Assembly (NCBI GenBank): GCA_023898585.1
Contig: CP060229.1
Span: forward strand, 790,587 to 854,586
Source of the DNA: Candidatus Nomurabacteria bacterium
GTDB taxonomy: Bacteria; Patescibacteriota; Minisyncoccia; Phycocordibacterales; UBA918
Direction: 5' to 3'
Length of the DNA: 64,000 nt
Shown: positions 12,110-31,720 of the stretch, in pieces
Layout: every line of letters starts with the position of its first letter
Numbering within the stretch: position 1 is the stretch's first letter
Made by a program: the position numbers and the translations under genes
Notes under the pieces: generated by a model
What the model saw: the letters and a program-made list of their open reading frames with translations, nothing else
What the model was told of the DNA's origin: nothing
Database searches by the model: none

Positions 12110-12181
12110 GGCCCTATCGTCTAACGGCTAGGACAGCAGGTTCTCATCCTGCAAATCGGGGTTCGATTCCCCGTAGGGTCA
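12110..12181 (+). tRNA. tRNA-Glu (anticodon CTC)
   Basis: The cloverleaf folds by hand: a 7-bp acceptor stem (GGCCCTA/TAGGGTC), a D arm, anticodon stem GCAGG/CCTGC with loop TTCTCAT, and T arm CGGGG-TTCGATT-CCCCG. No CCA is encoded. Confidence 0.8.
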
Positions 12182-13698
12182 CAAAACGAGACTTCGTCTC
12201 TAGATAACGAGCGCGGCGAAGCCGCGCGAGCAGAAGCCAGAGGAAACATAGCCCTACGCTCCGCCACCAAACCAAAGGGTGACGGGACGGAAAAGCGCGC
12301 GGATTTGTCACGAACCAATGGGTTCGTTCCAACTTTTTTGACGAATGAAGCAATTTCAGGGAAATTGCTGGATGAGGATAAAAAGGTGGCTTGTTTCGTA
12401 TCTAAAATCCACTCCCGCAGGGGTTCGACCCAATTATTTCCTTGGTGTGCAAAATCTTTCTTTTTCTCCTTCAAAGCAAGGGTGGCACGCATGATCTCGT
12501 CTTTTTTCTTGGTGTATATCTCTCGCGGTACGTCGCCATCAAGATATGCACCGACTAACTTATCCATGAGTGCCTCGCTGGCTTTGATACTATCGGAAAG
12601 ATTTTGGACACCACTTTGAGATGAGTGTTTTTCTTCTTGCTCCCACTCAGCAACCCTGGTGAGCATGTAATCGGTGTACGCATCGCAAAGCGAAATTGTT
12701 TGAAGCTGTTCCTTTAATTGGTCGGCGAGAACGTCCTCGCGCACGTATCCTTGGGAGCATGTTCCTTTCTTTTTAGTACAACGATAATATCTATACTTTC
12801 CTCCGCATTTGCCAGTAGCCCACTGTGCAGTAAACATGCTCCCACACTCTCCGCACGCAAAAATGCCCACAAACGGAAAGTCATGCTTGGCCTTCCGTTT
12901 GCGAGGACGTTCTCTTGCCGACAATACTTTTTGCACAGCTTCAAACAATTTCGGGGAAATAATTGGCGCAAAGCTTCCGTCAAACCATTCGTCATGATGA
13001 CAAACAAATCCGAGATAGGCGCGGTTCGTCAACATGCGTTTTATGGAAGCTTTGCCAAGTGGCGTTCCTTTGCCAGTCGTTACACCGTGAAGCGCCAGAA
13101 AGTCGGCGAGCGAAACCAATCCATGCTCACCTTTGGCGTATTCCTCAAATGCTTTCACAATAATCTTGCTATGCACTGGATGCGGTTCGATATTCCTCGT
13201 ACGCGGATTATTCACATAGCCAAAGGGAGCTTTGGTGAGCCACTCGCCTCGCCGAACTTTCTGGCGCATCCCTCGCTTCACATTCTGCGTTAGATTGTCT
13301 GAATAATATTTAGATTGACCGAACGCCACTTGCAACATAAAGAGCCCTTGCGGGGTGGGTTCAAACCAAAATGTTGGAAAGCGCAAAGACGCAATTTTCT
13401 CAGTATCAACTGCATACACAATACGACCACCATCTATACTATTGCGTGCCAGTCTATCGGGATGCCACGCTAAAATACCCACACCATCCAAAGAGTCAAT
13501 TTGCTCCATCATCTTACTAAATACTGGACGTCCGGGTGTCTTTGCACTTTTTGACTCTTGAAACTCCGCTAGGATTTCAAGATTTTCTTTACGCGCAAAC
13601 TCTCTCATTTCAAAAAGCTGCGATTCGATAGACATAACTTGCTTATCGTCATCTTCTGTCGATTTGCGAGCGTATAGAAAATATTTTGGTTTGAACAT
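12121..13698 (-). CDS. large serine recombinase (resolvase/invertase catalytic domain + recombinase domain + zinc ribbon)
   Basis: Start adjusted to MFKPKYFLYARKSTEDD...SIESQ (the catalytic Ser motif). A Cys cluster is present (CGECG...CTKKKGTC). The ORF C-terminus reads through IR1-L into the tRNA, so the true stop is uncertain. Confidence 0.8.
   Translation of the reverse strand: MFKPKYFLYARKSTEDDDKQVMSIESQLFEMREFARKENLEILAEFQESKSAKTPGRPVFSKMMEQIDSLDGVGILAWHPDRLARNSIDGGRIVYAVDTEKIASLRFPTFWFEPTPQGLFMLQVAFGQSKYYSDNLTQNVKRGMRQKVRRGEWLTKAPFGYVNNPRTRNIEPHPVHSKIIVKAFEEYAKGEHGLVSLADFLALHGVTTGKGTPLGKASIKRMLTNRAYLGFVCHHDEWFDGSFAPIISPKLFEAVQKVLSARERPRKRKAKHDFPFVGIFACGECGSMFTAQWATGKCGGKYRYYRCTKKKGTCSQGYVREDVLADQLKEQLQTISLCDAYTDYMLTRVAEWEQEEKHSSQSGVQNLSDSIKASEALMDKLVGAYLDGDVPREIYTKKKDEIMRATLALKEKKKDFAHQGNNWVEPLREWILDTKQATFLSSSSNFPEIASFVKKVGTNPLVRDKSARFSVPSPFGLVAERRAMFPLASARAASPRSLSRDEVSFCDPTGNRTPICRMRTCCPSR
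12179..12302. repeat. IR1-L: 124-bp GC-rich inverted repeat (left copy), starts inside the tRNA 3' end
   Basis: Its reverse complement equals 13732-13855 with a single mismatch. It contains the hairpin GCGCGGCGAAGCCGCGC. Confidence 0.9.
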
Positions 13699-16998: not shown

Positions 16999-17224
16999 CC
17001 AAAAATTTCCTTTCTTCTTTTTGGCGGCTTCCCCCTGCACCCCCTTCCGCTTTTAGAAAGGTAAGGAAATTTTTAGGGTTGCTGCGTGCGAGGTACGAGC
17101 GCGCCCCGAGGCGTATCACCACGCACCCGAATGCGTACGCAGAAGTACAAAGCCACCACGCGCTCCGCGCGTTGCTAGTTCTGTTCAAAGTAAGTTCGCG
17201 CAAGGGTTAGTATTTCTTCACAAA
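16999..17224. repeat. IR2-R: right copy of the 226-bp inverted repeat
   Basis: Reverse complement of 13849-14074. It ends with the core TCACAAA at 17218-17224. Confidence 0.9.
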
Positions 17225-18887
17225 TAGCAGACATACGGTCGTCAAAGGCATCAAATCCCTTTTTGACCTTATATACCAACGTATCTTGAGCGATAAAAAG
17301 TTCTGAAAAAATAACTTTTACAATCCTCTCTTTTTCGTGTGGATTGGCAAAATCGTAAACAGGCACAACGTTTTTTAGGAGTTCTGAAAGTGTCACCACA
17401 TCTTTCATCAATTCACGCATCGCTACGTCAGACACTTCTTCATCTGTCTTGAGTTGCTTCAAGTCAGTTTCAAGTTTCTGTTCTTCATCCATAAACGTTT
17501 CAGGTGTATAGACACCGCTCTGTAGCAGAGACAGTCGATTAGAACGTAGGTATGCCATATTCTCACGTATCTTCTTCTTTTTACGCTCAACCACGTTGAG
17601 TGACTTGTGACGCTTTTCTTCGAGTAACGAAATGTCAGTACTAGCACGAGCTTCAAGCTGTGCAAGCTCATTGTCTGTGAAATACAAACTTTCTACTAGA
17701 CCTTTTATTTCACCAGCAAGGTAATCAAAGTTACAGTTTTTCATCGTGTTGGTACAACCTTTCAAACAACGAGCATTGAAATACAAAATACCTTTCTTGG
17801 TGTATGGCGTATAGACACGTTCACAATGGGCACAGCGAACGACACCACGCAAAGGATGGTCTAGTTTCTCTGTGTAGTGAACGCTCACTTTTTTCTTATT
17901 TAGGTTAGCTTGGACTTGATTGAAGACCTCATCACTTACCAAAGCTTCGTGACTGGTGCTTTCAATATATATTCCATCGGGACCTTTAGTGCGTCCAGTA
18001 TAAAACCTACTCGTCAAAATACGACTGATGTGATTTTCAGTTACGGGTCGAGATGTTTTCTCTATTACTTCAACTTCCTCACTATCATCAGCAAGTATTT
18101 CAGCTTTAGAACGACGTCTACGCATTGGGACCGTTGTAAAACCTTGTGCAACTGCGTGACGAGCAAGGTCAGCTAAACTCCAATCGCCAGTAGCATACAA
18201 CTCGAACATTTCTTTGATTATAGGAGCACGTACAGGGTCAAATGGTTTATGGTCGATATTACCCTCATTCAAATAACCAATCGGTGCTCGATAAGTACAC
18301 TTACCTTTCTGACGGCTATTCTTGGTACTCAACGTAACTTTCTCACTGGTTACTCGTGAGTGATGTTGCGAGAACATACTGTCGATATCCATATGCAACT
18401 CACCAGCACTACTTTTGTCGTAGTTAGCGTATACAAAACGAACATCAATACCATTACGCATCAGCTTACGAATGATAGTGTCATCTCCTTTATTTCGACT
18501 GATGCGGTCCCAACAAAGGCAGACGATACCTTTGAAGTATCCTCTGCTCAAGTGTTGGAGTAGTTGCTGAAACTTTGGTCGGTCAATACGATACTGGACC
18601 ATCCCGTTAGAGATATACAGCTCATCATCTTCTTTGAAACCAGAATGTTTTTCAGATACAACTCCGTTGGTACAAAAGCCAGTCAGGGTCACAGGTGCAA
18701 GCTTGATTTTGTTACGCTTTGCAAAATCTGTATTTTCTGTACGTTGGTATGAAATTGAGTTTTTCTGGTTATCTGCTTCGTCAGTACTTTTGCGATTATA
18801 AACCAGATAGCAGTCACGATATTTACCGTTTACTATATCTTTCAATATGTCTTTTTCTGACTGTATTTTACTCATTTTCATTTTCAT
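17175..18887 (-). CDS. large serine recombinase (second, divergent paralogue)
   Basis: YNRKSTDEADNQKNSISYQ catalytic motif, a recombinase domain and a zinc ribbon (CAHCERVYT...CLKGC). Its 3' end lies inside IR2-R. Confidence 0.8.
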   Translation of the reverse strand: MKMKMSKIQSEKDILKDIVNGKYRDCYLVYNRKSTDEADNQKNSISYQRTENTDFAKRNKIKLAPVTLTGFCTNGVVSEKHSGFKEDDELYISNGMVQYRIDRPKFQQLLQHLSRGYFKGIVCLCWDRISRNKGDDTIIRKLMRNGIDVRFVYANYDKSSAGELHMDIDSMFSQHHSRVTSEKVTLSTKNSRQKGKCTYRAPIGYLNEGNIDHKPFDPVRAPIIKEMFELYATGDWSLADLARHAVAQGFTTVPMRRRRSKAEILADDSEEVEVIEKTSRPVTENHISRILTSRFYTGRTKGPDGIYIESTSHEALVSDEVFNQVQANLNKKKVSVHYTEKLDHPLRGVVRCAHCERVYTPYTKKGILYFNARCLKGCTNTMKNCNFDYLAGEIKGLVESLYFTDNELAQLEARASTDISLLEEKRHKSLNVVERKKKKIRENMAYLRSNRLSLLQSGVYTPETFMDEEQKLETDLKQLKTDEEVSDVAMRELMKDVVTLSELLKNVVPVYDFANPHEKERIVKVIFSELFIAQDTLVYKVKKGFDAFDDRMSAICEEILTLARTYFEQN

Positions 18888-22824: not shown

Positions 22825-23034
22825 TAGATATCTAACACTACAATCCGCCTAACCTCACAATGTGAGCACGGCATAAAATACCCGACCAAGATAGTAACCT
22901 CCTCATCAGGTTGTTGCACTCTTGGTCGGGTCGTAGCTCGAAAGGGCTACGGGCAGTTGGAAACAGCTGTCGCAGTCAACTCTGGTGAGGAGTTTTCTGT
23001 TTTATAAATCCATTCATAAAATCCCGACCAAGGT

Positions 23035-24870
23035 ATGAATACAAAAACCAAGAAAGCCACCAATGGTGGTGATAAAGCCCCAACCCAAAAACTTTCTGCA
23101 ACGAAAGGTCGAGCAATGCTTGAGTGGTATGGCAAGCGTGCTCCCAAAAGTATTGACTGGTTTCCAGCTCAAGAAAAAGAAGTGTACGGCAATCTCAAAG
23201 CCAAGGATTGGAACAAGCTATTTTGGGGTGACAACAAACAAGTACTCTCGCACTTACTCAAGGAGTATCGTGGCAAAGTTGATTTGATATACATTGACCC
23301 ACCGTTTGATAGCAAGGCGGATTACGTCAAAAAAGTGAAGCTGAACGGTCAAAAACTGCAAGGTGTGGACCAAAATGTGCTCGAAGAAATGCAGTACACC
23401 GATATGTGGGAGAAAGATGAGTACCTACAGTTTATGTACGAACGGCTCATCATTATGCGTGAACTGATGTCTGAAACGGGGTCTATTTACTTACATTGTG
23501 ACTGGCATAAAAACTCGCACTTACGCTTGATTATGGATGAAGTATTTGGAGAAGATAACTTGGTCAGAGAAGTTATATGGAACAGAGGGAATGCCTCTGG
23601 AGGTAAAGCTGGTGCAAGAAACTGGATACATACACACGACACGATACTTTTTTACGCAAAAAATAAAGAAACATCTACTTTCAACAAACAATACGACGAG
23701 TATTCTGAAGAATACATCAACGAACGCTTTACTCACACTGATGAGAAAGGTAGATATCGTTTGCAAGGTTCAGATAACAGAAAACAATATCTATCCGAGT
23801 CGAAAGGTAAAGCAGTTACTTCTGTGTGGGACCTGCCAGATATCAACGTAATGGCACTTGAGCGAACTGATTACCCCACACAAAAACCCCAAACAATACT
23901 TGAGATGATAATCAAAGCATCTTCAAACGAGGGTGATTTAGTGATGGATTGCTTTGTTGGGTCTGGGAGCACCATTGCTGTTGCTGAAAAGCTAGGTAGA
24001 CGCTGGATTGGTTGTGATATCAACAAAGGAGCTATCATTACTTCAACCGAGCGACTGCAAAAGATTGTTTCTGAAAAAGGTGATAAAACTGGCTTCAAGG
24101 TCTATAACGTCAATCACTACGATGTGTTCAATAACGATATCCAAGCCAAGCAACTACTCATTGAGACATACAAGATAGATGAACTCTCACGAGGTGATTT
24201 TGACGGTACGCTCGGGGTTGATTTCGTAAAAATCATTTCACCCAATCGAGTGTTTTCAAAGTTGGACGCTCAACACGTCATTGACGCTATCAAGAAAAGC
24301 AAAACACTCTTTACTGCCAAAACTACTAGCAAGCAAAAAGAAAGTGTCTTTGAAAACAAGGTGATTGTGATTTGTAGTGGAACCGAGTTAGATGTGCGTG
24401 ACTTTATCAAGCAAGAGAACAAAACAGGTGTCGATATCGAGGTGCGTGATATCCAATCAGATAAACGTGAGTTGGACTTCAAGAAGCCAACTGAAGCATC
24501 TATCTCATATGTTCTCAAAGGCAAGAAACTGAACGTAGAGGTGAAAGATTACTACTCACCGCTCTTGATGAAGCGATTAGAGCTAGAGAACGAGGGTCGG
24601 CTTTCAAAGAAAGAGCGTGTAAACGTATTTGATTTCCGCCAAGCGATTGAGCACGTTGTGATAGATATCAACTACGGCGAGGGTCAAAAGAAGAATGACG
24701 ATATTGCGTTCAACGCAGAAGCGTTCTTACATAAAGACAAAAAGAATGACCTTGTGTCAGTCACCCACGAGCACACCTACGAGAAGAAAGGAACATACAC
24801 GATAGCAGTCAAGATTGTGGATGTATTGGGTGAAGAATACTTTGAAACTAGAGAAATAACCGTGAAGTAA
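23035..24870 (+). CDS. mod: Type III restriction-modification methyltransferase (Mod), beta-class N6A/N4C MTase
   Basis: Motif IV DLIYIDPPFDSK precedes motif I (DCFVGSGST), which is beta-class motif order. Its 611-aa size is typical of Mod, and it is directly followed by a res-like helicase-nuclease. Confidence 0.8.
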   Translation: MNTKTKKATNGGDKAPTQKLSATKGRAMLEWYGKRAPKSIDWFPAQEKEVYGNLKAKDWNKLFWGDNKQVLSHLLKEYRGKVDLIYIDPPFDSKADYVKKVKLNGQKLQGVDQNVLEEMQYTDMWEKDEYLQFMYERLIIMRELMSETGSIYLHCDWHKNSHLRLIMDEVFGEDNLVREVIWNRGNASGGKAGARNWIHTHDTILFYAKNKETSTFNKQYDEYSEEYINERFTHTDEKGRYRLQGSDNRKQYLSESKGKAVTSVWDLPDINVMALERTDYPTQKPQTILEMIIKASSNEGDLVMDCFVGSGSTIAVAEKLGRRWIGCDINKGAIITSTERLQKIVSEKGDKTGFKVYNVNHYDVFNNDIQAKQLLIETYKIDELSRGDFDGTLGVDFVKIISPNRVFSKLDAQHVIDAIKKSKTLFTAKTTSKQKESVFENKVIVICSGTELDVRDFIKQENKTGVDIEVRDIQSDKRELDFKKPTEASISYVLKGKKLNVEVKDYYSPLLMKRLELENEGRLSKKERVNVFDFRQAIEHVVIDINYGEGQKKNDDIAFNAEAFLHKDKKNDLVSVTHEHTYEKKGTYTIAVKIVDVLGEEYFETREITVK

Positions 24871-24871
24871 T

Positions 24872-27481
24872 ATGCAGTTATTCGTTCAAGCCCTACAAAG
24901 TCGAGTGACCAGCTGGAAAGAAGCTGGTTATGCAGGCATCTACCCTGAAACTAGAAACATTCTCGCTCACATCAAGAGCAACAACTTTTTGCACGAACCA
25001 CAGCGTGAAGCCCTTGAAACATACATTTATCTCAAAGAAGTACTCGATAATCGTTCGGTCCCACAGATAGTCGCCGAGTACGCTGATAGTGACACTGACT
25101 TTTTGAAAGTCCTTGGTTTTGAGCAAGGCGTGATTGAGCTGTGGAGCGACCTATCGCCAGAGAAACGAACCGAGCGGATACAAAAGCAACTAGCTGGACT
25201 TGGCTTTGCTGAATATGGTTATGCTAACTTTGTACTCGCTCTCACAATGGGTTCTGGTAAAACCATTTTGATGGGCACGCTGATGATGTATGAGTTTATT
25301 GTGTCGTTCAATCACCCTGACGACACCCGCTTTGCCAAGAACGTGTTGGTGTTTGGACCAGCTGATACGGGTATCGTTGAGGTGCTCAAGGAAATAAAGA
25401 CCTTTGATTACAGCACGGTGATACCACGAGAATATGAAGATATCTTACTCAACATCAAATACTGGTACTTGGAGAAGCCAGAAACGCCACTCAACCCACT
25501 TGGCAACTACAACGTGATAGTGAGTAACTCATCCAAAATCATCTTGCGTAACTGGAGTGACGTAAACAAAGGTAATCGGCTCTTTGAACTACGCAAAGAA
25601 ACAGCCAACAAACGCCTGACAGCAATCCAGCAACTAGAAAATCTAGCGGTCTTTGTTGATGAAGCCCACCACTCTTATGGTGAAGATGTGTCAAAGAAGC
25701 TGAACCAATCTCGTAAAACCATTCACCACCTTGCTGAAAACACTAACGTAGTGACGGTCGCCAACCTCACTGGTACACCGTATGTGAAGAACGTGATGTT
25801 GCCAGATACGGTATACACGTTCAGCTTGCAACACGGTATTGAGAAAGGCATCTTGAAACAAGTTACGGTCAGTAATCACGGTAGTAGCAACGAGGTCCAA
25901 TCAGAGGACTTTGTGAACTCGGTCGTAGATATGTTCTGGAAAGAATATGGCGATACTCGGATTGCCGAAAAACTGCCCAAGATTGCGTTTTATACGACAG
26001 ATATAACAATGCTCGAACAGCTAGAAGAAAACCTCGACAAAGCCCTCCAGCGGCTTCATATACCCCTCTCAAAGAAGATTGTCTGGCACTCAACGTACAC
26101 AGGTGAGAAAAAGAAAGACGCTGACTATGAGTTCAATCGCCTAGATACGCCAGAAAGTGAAAAACAGTTCATTTTGCTGGTAAATAAAGGGACCGAGGGC
26201 TGGAACTGTAAGTCATTGGTAGCGGTTGCGTTGTACAAGAACTCAACCAGTAATAACTTCGTACTACAGGCATCGTGTCGCTGTTTACGGCGTATTGGTG
26301 ACAATAGCGTGAAAGCACGAGTATTCTTGTCAGATGAGAACTACAAAGTGCTCAATCGAGAGCTAGAAAACAACTTCAATACTGATATCTCGCAACTGAC
26401 TGGCAAAGTACAAAATGAAGTACAGGTTGATTTGGTGGTTGAGAAAAGACGTACGGTAGAGATAAATCGTAAGTTAGTTGAAATACTCTCATCAAGCAAT
26501 ATAAAGCCGAGCAATATAAAGATTGACCTCAAAAAGACCCCACCCAAGAAAACCATACCGTTGATACAAGAACGAGAGATTAGCTTGAGTGATGATGGTA
26601 AAGCGGTGTACCGTGACCCTATTTCTGTGCAGTCAGCTGATACTGAAACGCAAGAACGTTCATTTGGGTATTACGACATTGTTGCGTTGCTACAACAAAA
26701 AACACACTTGTCGTTCACTGCTATAAATGAGATTTTTGAAGCCAACAAGATAACCCGTGACGCACTGGTAAAAGCAGTTGAAAAGAACTACTTGGTGGTC
26801 CACGGTATCGTCAATCAAATACTCGAACAAGCTATCAGCTACGAACAAAAAGAAACCATCAAGACCGAACTGCTTGAGCTAACCAAAGCGTTTCCGTTCA
26901 AAATCAATGTCAAACGAGAGTTGCACGAAACTGATACTGAAGCGTTTGCACGTAGTTTACTGATTTATCGTGAACAAGAAGAAGCAAATGGTCACAAATC
27001 GCAGTTTGGTTTTCACGTCAATCCGTACAACTTTGACAGCACTGACGAGTTAGAGATATTCAAATATCTACGGCAAGGACTACGAGACAATGAAGCCGTG
27101 TCAGACGTTTATTTCACTGGCGGTATCACCAATGAAAAGCATAATGAGTTTTTCTTTGAATACTGGAACCCAGCTGAAGAACGAGTATCAAAGTACTTTC
27201 CAGATTTCTTGGTTGAGACAACCAGCGGTCGCTACTTGGTCCTTGAGGTGAAAGATGACCGTGCTGAAACTAAACTGGCATATGAGAACGACAAGAAACG
27301 CTATCGCAAAGGCAGTATTACAAAGGACCAACTTTCAAGCATTGTCTATGCAAAAGAAGTGGGATTTGATGAGTTCAAAGCCCTCAACAAGAACTTTGAG
27401 TACCACATCGTATTCAACGGTACTGTCGCATCTAATCAGCAAGAAGTACTCGAAAAGATTGTGAAAAATAAGCGTGGTTAG
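24872..27481 (+). CDS. res: Type III restriction endonuclease Res subunit (SF2 helicase + C-terminal PD-(D/E)xK)
   Basis: Walker A (TMGSGKT), DEAH box (VFVDEAHH), a helicase motif VI region and a C-terminal nuclease motif PDFLVE...LVLEVKD. Its start is 2 nt after the mod stop. Confidence 0.8.
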   Translation: MQLFVQALQSRVTSWKEAGYAGIYPETRNILAHIKSNNFLHEPQREALETYIYLKEVLDNRSVPQIVAEYADSDTDFLKVLGFEQGVIELWSDLSPEKRTERIQKQLAGLGFAEYGYANFVLALTMGSGKTILMGTLMMYEFIVSFNHPDDTRFAKNVLVFGPADTGIVEVLKEIKTFDYSTVIPREYEDILLNIKYWYLEKPETPLNPLGNYNVIVSNSSKIILRNWSDVNKGNRLFELRKETANKRLTAIQQLENLAVFVDEAHHSYGEDVSKKLNQSRKTIHHLAENTNVVTVANLTGTPYVKNVMLPDTVYTFSLQHGIEKGILKQVTVSNHGSSNEVQSEDFVNSVVDMFWKEYGDTRIAEKLPKIAFYTTDITMLEQLEENLDKALQRLHIPLSKKIVWHSTYTGEKKKDADYEFNRLDTPESEKQFILLVNKGTEGWNCKSLVAVALYKNSTSNNFVLQASCRCLRRIGDNSVKARVFLSDENYKVLNRELENNFNTDISQLTGKVQNEVQVDLVVEKRRTVEINRKLVEILSSSNIKPSNIKIDLKKTPPKKTIPLIQEREISLSDDGKAVYRDPISVQSADTETQERSFGYYDIVALLQQKTHLSFTAINEIFEANKITRDALVKAVEKNYLVVHGIVNQILEQAISYEQKETIKTELLELTKAFPFKINVKRELHETDTEAFARSLLIYREQEEANGHKSQFGFHVNPYNFDSTDELEIFKYLRQGLRDNEAVSDVYFTGGITNEKHNEFFFEYWNPAEERVSKYFPDFLVETTSGRYLVLEVKDDRAETKLAYENDKKRYRKGSITKDQLSSIVYAKEVGFDEFKALNKNFEYHIVFNGTVASNQQEVLEKIVKNKRG

Positions 27482-28518
27482 TTAGTCATCAAAAACCAAT
27501 ACAAGTTCTTCAAATCTTCACTTACTTTGTATTCACTTGCGTGAGACAAAGCACCCAGATACGAGTTCAAAGATTGCTCTGCTGTCTCACTGTTCGATTT
27601 GCTCTCTCTAACTTTCCTCATCAGACCTTTATACACTCGTCGTCTTGTCTTGGTTCGCAATCGCTTGTAGTGCGGTAAAACAACATAGCCAAGATAATCT
27701 GCACCGTTATGAAGTTTGTGAACAGAAACTTTATTTGGGTGCAAAGATAGCTTTAGATGTTCACCAAGAAAGTCAGATACTGGCTTCAATAGGTCAATAA
27801 GATACTGCTCATTATCAGCAACCACCACAAAGTCATCAGTGTAGCGTGCATAGTGTTTTGCTTTCACAGTGTGCTTCATAAACTGGTCAAACTCGTTCAT
27901 ATAGATATTGGCAAACAGTTGCGAGGTGAGATTGCCGATTGGTATGCCTTTTCGCTCAAACAGATTGGAAGTTCCAGCTGAAAAACTACCGATGATTTCT
28001 TCTAACAAACTCACTACTTCAACATCATCAATCACTCTATTCAAAATACCAATCAAAACACTATGGTCTACACTGTCAAAAAATCGTCTAATATCGCACT
28101 TCAGCACAAAGCACGGTTTGGTGTAGTTTTTACTCACTTTTCTTGTTGCTTTTTCAAGCCAAAGCACTCCTTTGTGCGTGCCTTTGTTCACTCGACAAGA
28201 AAAAGACGTTGCAATAAACAATGGGTCGAACAAAGGATACAGCTTGTTGTATATGGCGTGATGCAACACTCGGTCACGTACCGTTGCTTTATGAATATGT
28301 CGGCGTTTTGGGTCAGTGATGTAAAACCCTTTGTACGTACCGTGCCGATATGACTTATTTTTCAAATCCCTATGCAGTGCAAAGATATTTTGTTCAAGCT
28401 CCCACTCAAAACGCAAGACGTCTTTCTTCTTGGTTTTGCCACGACGAAATACTTTCCACGCCAAAAAGAGGTTTTTGGTGTCGGTTATTTCTGTATATAA
28501 GTTAGTAAATGTTTTCAT
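27478..28518 (-). CDS. diversity-generating retroelement (DGR) reverse transcriptase
   Basis: RT motifs are present, including YTDDFVV (YxDD) and the DGR-specific IGNLTSQLFANIY (I/LGxxxSQ), which replaces the QGxxxSP of group II RTs. It is 347-356 aa with no maturase domain. Start adjusted to MKTFTNLY. Confidence 0.85.
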   Translation of the reverse strand: MKTFTNLYTEITDTKNLFLAWKVFRRGKTKKKDVLRFEWELEQNIFALHRDLKNKSYRHGTYKGFYITDPKRRHIHKATVRDRVLHHAIYNKLYPLFDPLFIATSFSCRVNKGTHKGVLWLEKATRKVSKNYTKPCFVLKCDIRRFFDSVDHSVLIGILNRVIDDVEVVSLLEEIIGSFSAGTSNLFERKGIPIGNLTSQLFANIYMNEFDQFMKHTVKAKHYARYTDDFVVVADNEQYLIDLLKPVSDFLGEHLKLSLHPNKVSVHKLHNGADYLGYVVLPHYKRLRTKTRRRVYKGLMRKVRESKSNSETAEQSLNSYLGALSHASEYKVSEDLKNLYWFLMTN

Positions 28519-28519
28519 T

Positions 28520-28867
28520 ATGGATGAGTTTGATATACCAATTTTCAAGAAAAGCTATGACCTGTATCGTCAATTGCACGAGCTACGAATAAAAGTTTCC
28601 AAACAAGATAGACATACACTCTGGCAAAAACTAGAGAACAGCACGCTTGAAGTAATTGAGGGTATTTTACGAGCCAGCTCAATGACTAAAGATGAGAAGT
28701 TGCCAGTACTGCAAGAAGTTAGTCATAATCTCAACGTTACTCGTATATTCATTCGTCTGGCTAAAGATACGAAAGTTATTGACATAGCTAAATACGAGCA
28801 TTTTCAGAGCCAAGTCGATGAAATTGGCAGAATGCTTGGCGGTTGGATAAAACAGGTAAAAAGCTGA
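28520..28867 (+). CDS. avd: DGR accessory variability determinant (Avd), four-helix-bundle protein
   Basis: About 115 aa. The C-terminus IGRMLGGWIKQVKS closely resembles Bordetella phage bAvd (VGRILGSWIARVNRK). Its start is 1 nt from the RT start, on the opposite strand. Confidence 0.7.
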   Translation: MDEFDIPIFKKSYDLYRQLHELRIKVSKQDRHTLWQKLENSTLEVIEGILRASSMTKDEKLPVLQEVSHNLNVTRIFIRLAKDTKVIDIAKYEHFQSQVDEIGRMLGGWIKQVKS

Positions 28868-28869
28868 AC

Positions 28870-28898
28870 AAAACGCTCCTTGATTGGGAGCGTTTTGT
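28870..28898 (+). terminator. rho-independent terminator after avd
   Basis: AAAACGCTCC-TTGATTG-GGAGCGTTTT forms a stem-loop that is followed by a T-run. Confidence 0.45.
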
Positions 28899-28912
28899 AA
28901 TAAAGATTTGAT

Positions 28913-29023
28913 TTCCGAGAAGACGAAACACCGATGTTGTCGTTACGGTTGTCATCCCAGTAGTTGTTGACATTCAGACCGTCAGCATCGAAGTTGCCGA
29001 CGATGACACGGTTGCCGTCCGCA
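28913..29023 (-). ncRNA. DGR template repeat (TR), 111 bp
   Basis: 111-bp repeat of VR (29413-29523) with 10 mismatches. Every mismatch falls where the TR sense (minus) strand has A. Confidence 0.85.
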
Positions 29024-29387
29024 GAATATGTCTGTTTCCGTCCGTACCACCAGAACTTGAGTATGGTCCTTATTGGCAATAAGACATCTTCTCGTTCCTG
29101 TATTTTATATAAGAGCACATAGCAAGTATCACTGTGACCTCCTGTAGAAACAGACAAGAAATATAATCCTTATCTTGAATTGCTCACTACGTATATCAAG
29201 TAGACATACGCACTCTGGCACCGCTTCAAGTAGAAACACTTGTGAGATGCAACCGTAATCACACCTACACGAACAAGTGGTCAGATAATAGCATAAAAAG
29301 AAGGACCCCAAGCGTGAGCAAGGGGTCCAAGGTTTCCTAAATCGAGCGAGGGCTTCGCCCAAGATAAGGGTCAAAAACGCAAGAACA

Positions 29388-30191
29388 TCAAGCGTTCAAG
29401 GCATCAAGGTTCTTCCGAGAAGACGAAACACCGAGGCTGTCGTCACGGTAGCCATCCCAGTAGACGCTGACATTCAGACCGCCAGCATCGAAGTTGCCGA
29501 CGATGACACGGCTGCCGTCCGCATCGACAGATGAAGTGCGAACATAGACACCTTTCAGTAGATACACGCCACGCACCTTGTAATAGGCGGTGACAGCGTA
29601 GCTGACTTCGGGAGCGTTCGGGACGTGCTCGACATCCGTAAGCAAAGCTTTTTGCTTATCCCACGTCTTCTTGCGAGAATTGAGGTACGGTTCCTTGCGA
29701 ACCATCAGCCATTGGCAAGCGGAGACCACATCCTCACGAGAGAACGTGTGCTGACTTTCGGCGTACCAGCCCTCCGACTTGGAGTAAAACAGCTGGTTGT
29801 CGAGGTCACGAACCTGAAGCAGGTTGTGGTCGGTCGGCGGTGTCGCCAACAGCATATAGCCGTTTGTGCGAAGCCACTGCAAGGTCTTTTCGTCGGGCAG
29901 GGTGTCAGCGAAAGCTGTTATCTGCTCGTCAGAGTAGTGGAACCCATAGGCGTTTGCAACATCTTCAGGCGAAATGAAATCATCGCCGAGAATGAGCATT
30001 GCCAAGGCAAATCCCTTGGGTGTCTCGTCACCCCGTGCGATAGCGACCGCACGGACCATCCGTGCTTTGTTTTCAATAAGTTCTTGGAGCAGGTCAGGCG
30101 TTCCGCCTTGGCGACCAAACTCGGCAATGAACTCATTGGTTTGACCGAGCGAAAAATCACTCGTTTTGCTGTGAGCTACACGATTTGTCAT
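29388..30191 (-). CDS. DGR target (variable) protein; C-terminal C-type-lectin/FGE-like variable region
   Basis: 267 aa. The C-terminal 40 aa are encoded by the VR (…VDADGSRVIVGNFDAGGLNVSVYWDGYRDDSLGVSSSRK). The VR sits at the 3' end of the gene, which is the canonical arrangement. Confidence 0.8.
   Translation of the reverse strand: MTNRVAHSKTSDFSLGQTNEFIAEFGRQGGTPDLLQELIENKARMVRAVAIARGDETPKGFALAMLILGDDFISPEDVANAYGFHYSDEQITAFADTLPDEKTLQWLRTNGYMLLATPPTDHNLLQVRDLDNQLFYSKSEGWYAESQHTFSREDVVSACQWLMVRKEPYLNSRKKTWDKQKALLTDVEHVPNAPEVSYAVTAYYKVRGVYLLKGVYVRTSSVDADGSRVIVGNFDAGGLNVSVYWDGYRDDSLGVSSSRKNLDALNA
29413..29523 (-). repeat. DGR variable repeat (VR), 111 bp, inside the 3' end of the target gene
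   Basis: 101/111 identical to the TR. All 10 differences correspond to TR adenines (A to C, G or T). Confidence 0.85.
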
Positions 30192-30370
30192 CGCAATACT
30201 CTCCTATGTAGTTGGTGTTATGTCCGTTCAGAATGAGACGAACATTTTATATACCAGTATTGATATGCAAAATGTTCGTTTCATTGAACCTTGAATATAG
30301 AAAGAACGAGGTCTGAACTATAACATATTTTAGATAAAAAGCAAGGTTAGACCCTCTTTATGTTGTAGCT

Positions 30371-30661
30371 ATGACTAAAAACTGTAAAATACTCTCAATG
30401 CTTACTGAACGAGAAAAGATGTTTGGCGAACTGCCAAAAGGTGCATATTTGTACTGTATTCACTGTGAACGTGCCTACCCAAAAGATAAGTATCGAGTGA
30501 TGTCTGATATTGATTTTGGATTGATGCAGATGTGTCCGTATGAAGATTGTGATGGTGATGCGGTAATGGATGCGTGGGAATGGACCCGTATTTGCTCTGA
30601 ACACACTGATTACCCAGATGTACCAGAAGAAAACAAGGTGTACCCAATGTACAAACAATAA
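30371..30661 (+). CDS. small Cys-rich (zinc-ribbon-like) protein
   Basis: 96 aa with CxxC...C..C..C clusters (CIHCERAY, CPYEDCDGD, ICSEH). Its stop is 2 nt before the HEPN-like gene. Confidence 0.4.
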   Translation: MTKNCKILSMLTEREKMFGELPKGAYLYCIHCERAYPKDKYRVMSDIDFGLMQMCPYEDCDGDAVMDAWEWTRICSEHTDYPDVPEENKVYPMYKQ

Positions 30662-31542: not shown

Positions 31543-31681
31543 GCAGACTAACCAATCAATTCTTGCAGTTCCATAACGTTTGATTTGATGTATTCTCTGC
31601 TATTATAGAGTTCTGAAAGCCAAGCTAATGGGTCACCAATTAGAGAGTCAGTTCGAGCACTCGAGAAGGCTCGAATCTGAC

Positions 31682-31720
31682 AAACAAAAACAGTCTCAGA
31701 TTGAGACTGTTTTTGTTTGC
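31682..31720. terminator. bidirectional terminator hairpin
   Basis: AAACAAAAACAGTCTCA-GAT-TGAGACTGTTTTTGTTT is a 17-bp perfect stem with U-runs on both sides. Confidence 0.55.

Follow-up and report, generated by a model that had tools for sequence, protein, structure and literature searches.

Genes and repeats of the element

The stretch of DNA analysed here, referred to below as the window, comprises 64,000 nucleotides of the chromosome of a Candidatus Nomurabacteria bacterium (GenBank assembly GCA_023898585.1, contig CP060229.1, positions 790,587 to 854,586) and contains a diversity-generating retroelement (DGR). The element consists of a gene for a reverse transcriptase (RT), a gene for an accessory variability determinant (Avd), a template repeat (TR) as well as a target gene that carries a variable repeat (VR) towards its 3′ end. 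An initial annotation made from the sequence alone had described this DGR as complete with target, VR, TR, Avd and a DGR-type RT, and the description holds: all of the parts are intact, and in other samples the VR varies at positions at which the TR has an adenine. Coordinates are positions in the window throughout, and related loci are designated by L numbers.

The RT gene (28518..27478, minus strand) encodes 346 residues from an ATG start and matches Pfam RVT_1 (E = 2.6e-23). The position of the start is backed by alignment A3 and by the gene calls in L001-L006. The IGNLTSQ and YTDD motifs named in the initial annotation were found at residues 194-200 (27939-27919, minus strand) and 226-229 (27843-27832, minus strand), respectively. 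The former is of the (I/L/V)GxxxSQ type carried by DGR RTs, in place of which group II intron and retron RTs carry QGxxxSP. When all PDB sequences were searched, the best match was the 328-residue reverse transcriptase 8ub7_A (E = 5.8e-43), which we take to be the bRT of Bordetella phage; group II intron and retron RTs scored approximately 1e-19 (approximately 5e-19 for group II in one listing). The RT segment GIPIGNLTSQLFAN aligns with GIPIGSLTSQLFAN of 8ub7_A, and GIPIG(N/S)LTSQLFAN is common to both. In the PDB search 8ub7_A lies 24 orders of magnitude ahead of the group II RTs; in the RT profile comparison that the initial annotation had proposed, the NCBIfam search returned no match of the window RT to a DGR RT model. 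The best NCBIfam match was the group II intron RT/maturase model TIGR04416, with 148.9 bits against a cut-off of 300, and the retron RT model (65 bits against a cut-off of 235) and the Drt matches were likewise far below their cut-offs. Taken together, the sequence comparisons place the window RT in the DGR clade, with bRT as its closest match.

The avd gene (28520-28867, plus strand) encodes 115 residues and is recognized by Pfam bAvd (PF22296; E = 6e-19) and by the NCBIfam equivalog model NF033474 DivGenRetAVD, with 83.3 bits against a cut-off of 80. The presence of an Avd-like protein, as annotated initially, is therefore borne out by both profiles; a search of the PDB with Avd alone gave no sequence match. 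The gene is located between the TR and the gene for the RT, on the strand opposite to that of the RT, the TR and the target. The ATG of the RT gene at 28518 (minus strand) and that of avd at 28520 (plus strand) diverge from each other with a gap of 1 nt. A Shine-Dalgarno-like purine run is absent within 15 nt of the ATG for both genes, and the target gene has AGGAG 8 nt upstream of its start. As the RT and avd starts are only 1 nt apart, both mRNAs must either begin within the coding sequence of the partner gene or be leaderless; we infer that each gene is expressed from a promoter that lies within the coding sequence of the other. The RT-sense sequence TTGAAAATTGGTATATC at this junction is highly conserved and was considered as a promoter, yet it was set aside because the same letters code for the conserved N-terminus of Avd (DIPIFKK) in AT-rich codons, and a promoter is not separable here from coding constraint.

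The TR (28913-29023, minus strand) and the VR (29413-29523, minus strand) are direct repeats of 111 nt each, with a spacing of 500 nt. The TR is rich in AAC codons, and its translation in the frame of the VR reads ADGNRVIVGNFDADGLNVNNYWDDNRNDNIGVSSSR. When recomputed, the repeats show an identity of 91% and exactly the ten differences that had been annotated initially: read on the minus (sense) strand, all ten mismatches fall on TR adenines (seven A>G, two A>T and one A>C). With 27 adenines among the 111 bases of the TR, the probability that all ten would fall on an adenine is 1.6e-7 (hypergeometric). Of the 27 TR adenines, 11 are in the first codon position, 16 are in the second and none is in the third. 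The VR is in frame at the 3′ end of the protein-coding target gene, where it occupies codons ~223-260 of 267. It does not comprise the last 37 codons of the target as first described, since seven codons (NLDALNA) and the stop codon come after the VR end at 29413. The final 22 nt of the VR, TCGGTGTTTCGTCTTCTCGGAA (29413-29434, minus strand), lie 3′ of the last adenine mismatch (29435) and are identical to the 3′ end of the TR (28913-28934). This shared end is a candidate for the core of the element for initiation of mutagenic homing (IMH) and its counterpart IMH*; its letters are unlike those of the IMH of the Bordetella phage BPP-1. No second VR, target paralogue or further RT was found within the 64-kb window. 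The G+C content of the 1-kb bin 29001-30000, which holds the target and the VR, is 50%, compared with ~41% in the neighbouring bins, 39-41% in the RT and avd genes and 52% in the TR and VR themselves. The raised value could result from a design constraint of the AAC- and GC-rich repeats or from a foreign origin.

The target gene (30191..29388, minus strand) encodes a protein of 267 residues, deposited as the hypothetical protein KC865_00615 (MCA9355039.1/USN92064.1) under the name Candidatus Kaiserbacteria. The protein is laid out as an N-terminal helical region followed by a C-type-lectin-like domain, and the VR forms the C-terminal part of that domain. Modelling of the target C-terminus had been suggested at the outset, and the predicted structure adopts a C-type-lectin-like fold that displays the VR. 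Comparison of the model with the variable proteins of other DGRs gave scores of 7.2 for TvpA, 6.7 for Mtd and 5.7 for TaqVP, and Foldseek was in weak agreement. The sequence itself has no match in Pfam, in NCBIfam or in the PDB (the last also searched with a target profile), and no recognisable Pfam domain, signal peptide, transmembrane segment or tail-fibre domain is present. A total of 255 homologues of the target were collected, and those with a named source are all from Patescibacteria (Kaiserbacteria, Nomurabacteria and Spechtbacteria). Their alignment shows a conserved protein body and a hypervariable VR segment. An inverted repeat (30232-30285) with 25-nt arms that are 84% complementary and a 4-nt spacer is located in the 180 nt that separate the target start (30191) from a divergent 96-residue open reading frame (30371). 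The sole promoter-like match near the target (30271..30244, minus strand) falls inside this inverted repeat, which may serve the target promoter as an operator or as a regulatory hairpin.

Variation in natural populations and layout across the clade

An RT identical to that of the window is present on nine contigs from several samples. A contig from an independent metagenome, L102 (sample SRR6747717), aligns without gaps to window positions 30209-28942 over ~1.27 kb. The two sequences differ at 17 positions in the VR, all 17 of which are TR-adenine positions, and at a single position outside the VR; the spacer and the 82 nt of the TR that are present on the contig are identical to those of the window. 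This pattern indicates that a homing event occurred after the divergence of the two populations. On three further contigs (L002, L003 and L005) the sole VR difference, at 29438, is also at a TR-adenine position. At the protein level, the target variant P0001 (from the 90% cluster; its DNA is that of L102) has 14 amino-acid differences, 13 of which are in the 18 residues with TR-adenine codons. The prediction of the initial annotation that VR variation in natural populations would be confined to TR-adenine positions is thus matched by the VR variants in other samples, as seen in assembled contigs. As judged from these sequences, the DGR of the window has recently been active.

Two scans were made to place the element among its relatives. 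A scan of metagenomes with the RT alignment gave at least 521 relatives, of which 80 metagenome loci were kept. When species-representative genomes were scanned with the target alignment, 15 loci were obtained, all of which are from Patescibacteria and have an inverted, abutting avd wherever an RT is nearby. The genome loci from the target scan, the 80 metagenome loci and the window were pooled, and 83 loci in this pool have enough upstream DNA for avd to be assessed. Of these 83 loci, 82 have an inverted avd that faces the RT gene head-to-head, with an extrapolated start-to-start gap of −2 to 28 nt. TR/VR pairs were obtained from 65 related loci, in which 944 of 1014 mismatches are at TR adenines.

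This layout has been described previously. In architecture B3 of Wu et al. (2018; PMC5758913) the order is TR-(avd)-RT, avd being encoded on the reverse strand, and 90% of their set of candidate phyla radiation (CPR) DGRs are of this kind. Roux et al. (2021; PMC8144416) defined a DGR clade 2 that is restricted to Patescibacteria and almost entirely cellular, with targets that lack recognisable domains. The order and strands of the genes in the window are those of B3. That the window RT may belong to clade 2 is suggested indirectly by the Patescibacteria origin of all 15 genome loci with target homologues and by the source, a Candidatus Kaiserbacteria. The initial annotation was therefore correct in placing avd on the strand opposite to the RT and in reporting back-to-back start codons with a 1-nt gap, but neither aspect is unusual as it had supposed: the relatives are alike in both respects, and the opposite strand of avd is the published norm for CPR DGRs. 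The element is a typical member of its lineage, and both the kind of DGR and its layout have already been published.

Several members of the same clade look like decaying copies. The RT genes of L010 (6490-7194), L013 (6555-7579) and L020 (6563-7628) contain an in-frame stop codon or a frameshift, and L013, L024 and L059 have many TR/VR mismatches that are not at adenines. Other loci (L009, L011, L012, L015-L019 and L021) have target homologues with VR-like 3′ ends and no RT within 5 kb; these could be targets at remote sites, or elements from which the RT has disappeared. A CTTGA array of the kind described below is present in L009, L011, L012, L016 and L019 of this group, and the start of the conserved 5′ RNA domain is retained in L012 and L019.

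RNA around the TR and the 3′ flank of the VR

The ~250 nt directly 5′ of the TR (29028..29275, minus strand), between the target terminator and the TR, are a structured non-coding RNA domain with at least six helices. In an alignment of 47 loci (A4) the domain has 51 consensus base pairs, 41 of which show compensatory changes. In total, 96.1% of cells are paired, compared with 40-48% in slid controls, and 620 cells are double-changed, compared with ~80. The covariation score of 0.734 is well above the 0.11-0.16 of the slid controls and was reached by none of 500 shuffles. A long-range helix, formed by 29157-29146 with ~29039-29028 (minus strand), closes a three-way junction a few nucleotides before the TR; by analogy with the 'cPRT stop' duplex of BPP-1, this closing helix may end the synthesis of complementary DNA (cDNA). 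The conserved sequence AUAAAAUACAGG (29108-29097) is also inside the domain. A 4-bp pairing predicted between the domain and the 3′ end of the TR was too weak to count.

Neither in the window nor in 54 related loci did any Rfam family reach its gathering threshold in the RNA that flanks the TR. Below threshold, the 5′ RNA domain matches RT-16 (RF03019) with 23.3 bits (gathering 50) and RT-14 (RF02921) with 20.0 bits (gathering 48.1), and RT-7 is also among the faint matches. Some of the RT RNA motifs have been proposed to belong to DGRs (Weinberg et al., 2017; PMC5737381). Both of the higher-scoring matches are on the right strand and directly 5′ of the TR. RT-16 has the closing helix, the AUAAAAUACAG box and GGUG in common with the window RNA, and RT-14 shares the GCCAGA...hairpin...AAGGAUU part. 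The window differs in that both motif-like parts are united in one larger RNA of ~250 nt, and its scores are far below gathering, which suggests distant homology only.

Upstream of helix 1 there is an extended −10-like element, TGCTATTAT (29285..29293, minus strand), of the TGnTAnnnT type. A TAnnnT hexamer, mostly with TG in front of it, precedes helix 1 by 5-16 nt in 38 of 38 loci. From its sequence and position, TGCTATTAT is the probable promoter of the TR RNA, which probably forms a transcription unit of its own of ~415 nt. At the other end of this unit, between the TR and the convergent stop codon of avd, is the hairpin AAAACGCTCC-N7-GGAGCGTTTT (28870..28896), with an A run on its 5′ side and a T run on its 3′ side. 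This was the only hairpin caught by a terminator scan of 27300-30500. A strong hairpin with an A run and a T run is found at the same position in all 56 loci examined, although the sequences of the stems differ. The hairpin resembles a bidirectional terminator. Handa et al. (2024) reported that 207 of 278 DGRs have Avd-binding stem-loops immediately downstream of the TR, and by analogy the hairpin is also a candidate Avd-binding stem-loop.

The 3′ flank of the VR carries an array of five CTTGA-type units (29371..29408, minus strand) with a period of 8-9 nt, consisting of three exact CTTGA units followed by CTTGC and TTTGA. The stop codon of the target is inside the third unit. In the window the array follows the VR and is absent after the TR, and exact CTTGA-N3-CTTGA has only two matches in the full 64 kb, both of which are after the VR. 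The clade-wide density of exact CTTGA per 80 nt is 2.68 after the VR, 0.09 after the TR and 0.14 in the background, and the dominant spacing is 8 nt. In 579 kb of sequence, 56 of 71 exact CTTGA-N3-CTTGA matches are within 90 nt 3′ of an identified VR, and additional target paralogues account, at their 3′ ends, for most of the others. In relatives the array comes after the stop codon, so it is a nucleic acid element rather than a peptide. A guide-like pairing between UCAAG motifs of the non-coding RNA and the CTTGA array was dropped, as the matches were of 5 nt only.

Beyond the array lies a GC-rich hairpin (29344..29360, minus strand) that contains GGGCGAAGCCC (29360-29350). Its core is the d(GCGAAGC) mini-hairpin, which is known to be stable. 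Like the array, the hairpin is present after the VR and not after the TR in the window; GGGCGAAGCCC is also found in L007, L008, L010 and L022-L025, and the fold of 29293-29412 as DNA has a z-score of −3.9. By analogy with other DGRs, the hairpin is a candidate recipient-site hairpin or cruciform. It is followed by a hairpin resembling an intrinsic terminator (GGACCCC...GGGGTCC with a T run; 29293..29328, minus strand) at the end of the target transcript, which has an equivalent in related loci.

A scan of IMG/VR for three CTTGA units gave 120 matches, most of which are chance occurrences or coding tandem repeats. Five, however, are DGRs (L141, L151, L180, L187 and L212). These are same-strand elements of the phage type, four of them with two VRs, and their RTs are 30-33% identical to that of the window. 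In all five, CTTGA-N3-CTTGA-N3-CTTGA starts 3-9 nt after each VR and never follows the TR; the array is followed by ACCCTTTA and then by a GC hairpin (CCGGCGC-GYAG-GCGCCGG). Of their 105 TR/VR mismatches, 104 are at TR adenines. Within the phage collection, the RT genes of these elements match only records of Pseudomonas, Burkholderia and Shewanella phages, with 67-70% nucleotide identity. The cultured phages Magia and LPPA56 have only one or two degenerate CTTGA units. The array is therefore widespread but not universal. A full-text search found no literature that links CTTGA with DGRs; the work of Paul et al. (2017), which was outside the scope of that search, may describe the array or the RNA domain.

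Interpretation and genomic setting

The element is, with high confidence, a chromosomal DGR of the Patescibacteria (CPR) lineage with architecture B3 that acts by standard mutagenic homing. In the mechanism that we propose, a non-coding RNA of ~415 nt would be transcribed from the minus strand, starting just after the target terminator and running through the 5′ domain of ~250 nt, the TR and a short linker to end in the hairpin or terminator. RT and Avd, made from their abutting divergent genes, would assemble on this RNA and reverse-transcribe the TR, inserting random bases opposite adenines; priming may occur in cis, as in BPP-1. The cDNA would then replace the VR at the 3′ end of the target, so that up to 18 residues could be recoded on the ligand-binding face of the C-type-lectin-like domain, which presumably meets a biological ligand. 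The recipient VR would be told from the donor TR by its 3′ flank, with five CTTGA-type 8-nt repeats and the GC hairpin. In this scheme the transcript boundaries are presumptive, as are the parts played by the CTTGA array, by the domain 5′ of the TR and by the hairpin 3′ of it.

Several points weigh against this interpretation. A generic sigma-70 scan of 27300-30500 found four promoter-like sites, compared with 4.9 expected by chance from shuffled sequences, and did not flag the TGCTATTAT element. Efficient termination at the hairpin after the TR would leave the RT in need of a start site of its own; the promoters of RT and avd must sit inside each other's coding sequence, and none was identified there. 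For the 5′ RNA domain and the CTTGA array, the functions proposed above are hypothetical. Activity was deduced from VR variants in assembled contigs and not from read-level data, and transcription, cDNA synthesis and homing are likewise known indirectly.

The same data bear on three other explanations. The element might be a decayed or domesticated relic, in which the adenine-specific differences are fossils of past activity. Relatives are indeed decaying (the RT lesions of L010, L013 and L020 and the non-adenine mismatches of L013, L024 and L059), and most of the contigs with an identical RT carry an identical or nearly identical VR. In the window itself, however, the RT, avd and target are intact and the ten mismatches, all at adenines, show no drift at other bases, while L102 is otherwise identical and has 17 VR changes exclusively at TR adenines, with one substitution elsewhere in ~1.27 kb. 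A relic is accordingly improbable. We regard it as just as improbable that the DGR is borne by a phage or mobile element and diversifies a receptor-binding (tail) protein, even though DGRs were first found in phages, the CTTGA array is common to phage DGRs and the neighbourhood resembles an island (a restriction-modification pair, DUF2779, a helicase, a serine recombinase and tRNA-Glu). No phage structural genes were seen in the window, which belongs to a 995-kb chromosome and carries genes for RNase J, UvrA, UvrB and a solute-binding protein; because of these housekeeping genes the element is taken to be chromosomal. In addition, the target is small (267 residues) and has no tail-fibre domains, its homologues are found in many CPR genomes in differing contexts, and the CPR clade of Roux et al. 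(2021) is almost entirely cellular.

The third explanation is that the locus is not a DGR at all, the RT being that of a group II intron, a retron or a defence system and the repeat having arisen when the 3′ end of a gene was duplicated by chance or by recombination. The order of the NCBIfam models, with the group II intron RT/maturase first (148.9 bits) and Drt and retron next, is what this explanation would predict, but these scores are far under the cut-offs (148.9 compared with 300) and 8ub7_A is 24 orders of magnitude ahead of the group II RTs. A group II intron was rejected, as no intron RNA was found in Rfam at gathering or at E <= 5 and TIGR04416 stays at 148.9 of the 300 bits; a retron was rejected on its RT model (65 of 235 bits), the absence of retron RNA in the same Rfam search and the identity of the adjacent gene as avd. 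With Avd next to the RT and mismatches confined to adenines, the probability of this explanation is negligible.

The published DGRs that most resemble the B3-type element described here are those of CPR architecture B3 (Wu et al., 2018) and clade 2 (Roux et al., 2021), which agree with it in gene order, orientation, host phylum, cellular location, a target without recognisable domains and adenine-specific mutagenesis. There is no essential difference, although the genes of the window are annotated as hypothetical proteins only. In the CPR DGR papers that were compared, the head-to-head starts, the 5′ RNA and the CTTGA array are undescribed; Paul et al. (2017) was outside this comparison. The prototype DGR of Bordetella phage BPP-1 (mtd-avd-TR-brt) shares with the window a DGR-type RT with (I/L/V)GxxxSQ, Avd, A-to-N changes between TR and VR, a VR at the 3′ end of a protein with the CLec fold, an IMH-like invariant repeat end and a GC hairpin downstream of the VR. 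The two differ in the RNA, as the window has ~45 nt with one hairpin after the TR, where BPP-1 has a 140-nt spacer (Rfam RT-10), and has a large structured domain 5′ of the TR. They also differ in the flank of the VR, which consists of CTTGA repeats in the window and of (GC)14 and a 21-bp IMH in BPP-1, in the hairpin loop (GAA or AGCCC in the window, not GRNA) and in the host, which is cellular rather than a phage. As with the hairpins or cruciforms described by Guo et al. (2011; PMC3240598), a GC-rich inverted repeat follows the VR at a short distance and does not follow the TR. The distance from the VR is greater in the window (53 nt) than in the set of Guo et al. (4-34 bp), and the CTTGA array, which that paper does not mention, lies in between.

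Two alternative readings of these cis elements go beyond standard homing, and the pair is offered tentatively, as a possibility that we consider rather doubtful. One is that the CTTGA array with its 8-nt period is an undescribed determinant of the recipient site and the functional IMH of these lineages. The RT-Avd particle might read the array in the form of single-stranded DNA or of RNA, with, for instance, one repeat per subunit of an Avd pentamer. The array has five units in the window, three in the DGRs of the Pseudomonadota-phage type and up to approximately eight in other CPR subclades. The other is that in B3-type elements the RNA scaffold has moved from 3′ of the TR, its place in BPP-1, to the 250-nt 5′ domain, where the closing helix would serve as the cDNA stop. 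If true, either would give a handle on an unsolved step of DGR function, namely how the cDNA finds and replaces the VR.

Thousands of DGRs have been catalogued and CPR genomes are rich in them, and as a DGR the present element adds little. It is nevertheless an unusually clean natural example, with intact parts on a single 995-kb contig and a VR that, at this locus in independent samples, is rewritten only at template adenines. The added interest over a known kind of DGR is modest and comes from the comparison of ~80 relatives, which exposes compact cis elements: the 5′ RNA, the hairpin that follows the TR, and the CTTGA array and GC hairpin that mark the VR. Of the steps in DGR function, recognition of the target site and integration of the cDNA are understood least, and they limit the use of DGRs as tools for mutagenesis in vivo. 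For this reason, a short, portable recipient signal that is common to distant lineages would be worth testing.

The DGR is flanked on the RT side by a restriction-modification pair resembling Type III (23035-27481, plus strand), which consists of an N6/N4 methyltransferase (611 residues) and a ResIII/BPTD_3080-like enzyme (869 residues) and is convergent with the RT gene. The stop codons of the Res gene (27481) and the RT gene (27478) overlap by 4 nt, and the pair is kept beside the DGR in L001-L006. Beyond the target are genes for a DUF2779 protein and a helicase of 1424 residues. A tRNA-Glu(CTC) gene (12110-12182, plus strand) and a large serine recombinase with Resolvase and Recombinase domains (17175-18887, minus strand) are located 9-15 kb from the DGR. 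The tRNA, the recombinase, the restriction-modification pair and the helicases suggest that the DGR resides in a genomic island.

A LOOT RNA (Rfam RF03000; 80.9 bits) is located just upstream of the methyltransferase gene (22846-22971, plus strand), 4.5 kb from the RT. LOOT RNAs were also found within a few kilobases of the DGR in five of 54 related loci scanned (L029:5572-5694, L040:5930-6047, L066:1218-1338, L028:1306-1430 and L070:1213-1329), and that of L028 is ~185 nt downstream of the VR on the strand of the target. This could reflect a true association between LOOT and DGRs, or just a general abundance of LOOT in CPR genomes. Finally, a perfect inverted repeat (31681-31719) with 18-nt arms (CAAACAAAAACAGTCTCA and TGAGACTGTTTTTGTTTG) and a 3-nt loop lies between an open reading frame of 292 residues and the DUF2779 gene, and is probably a bidirectional terminator.

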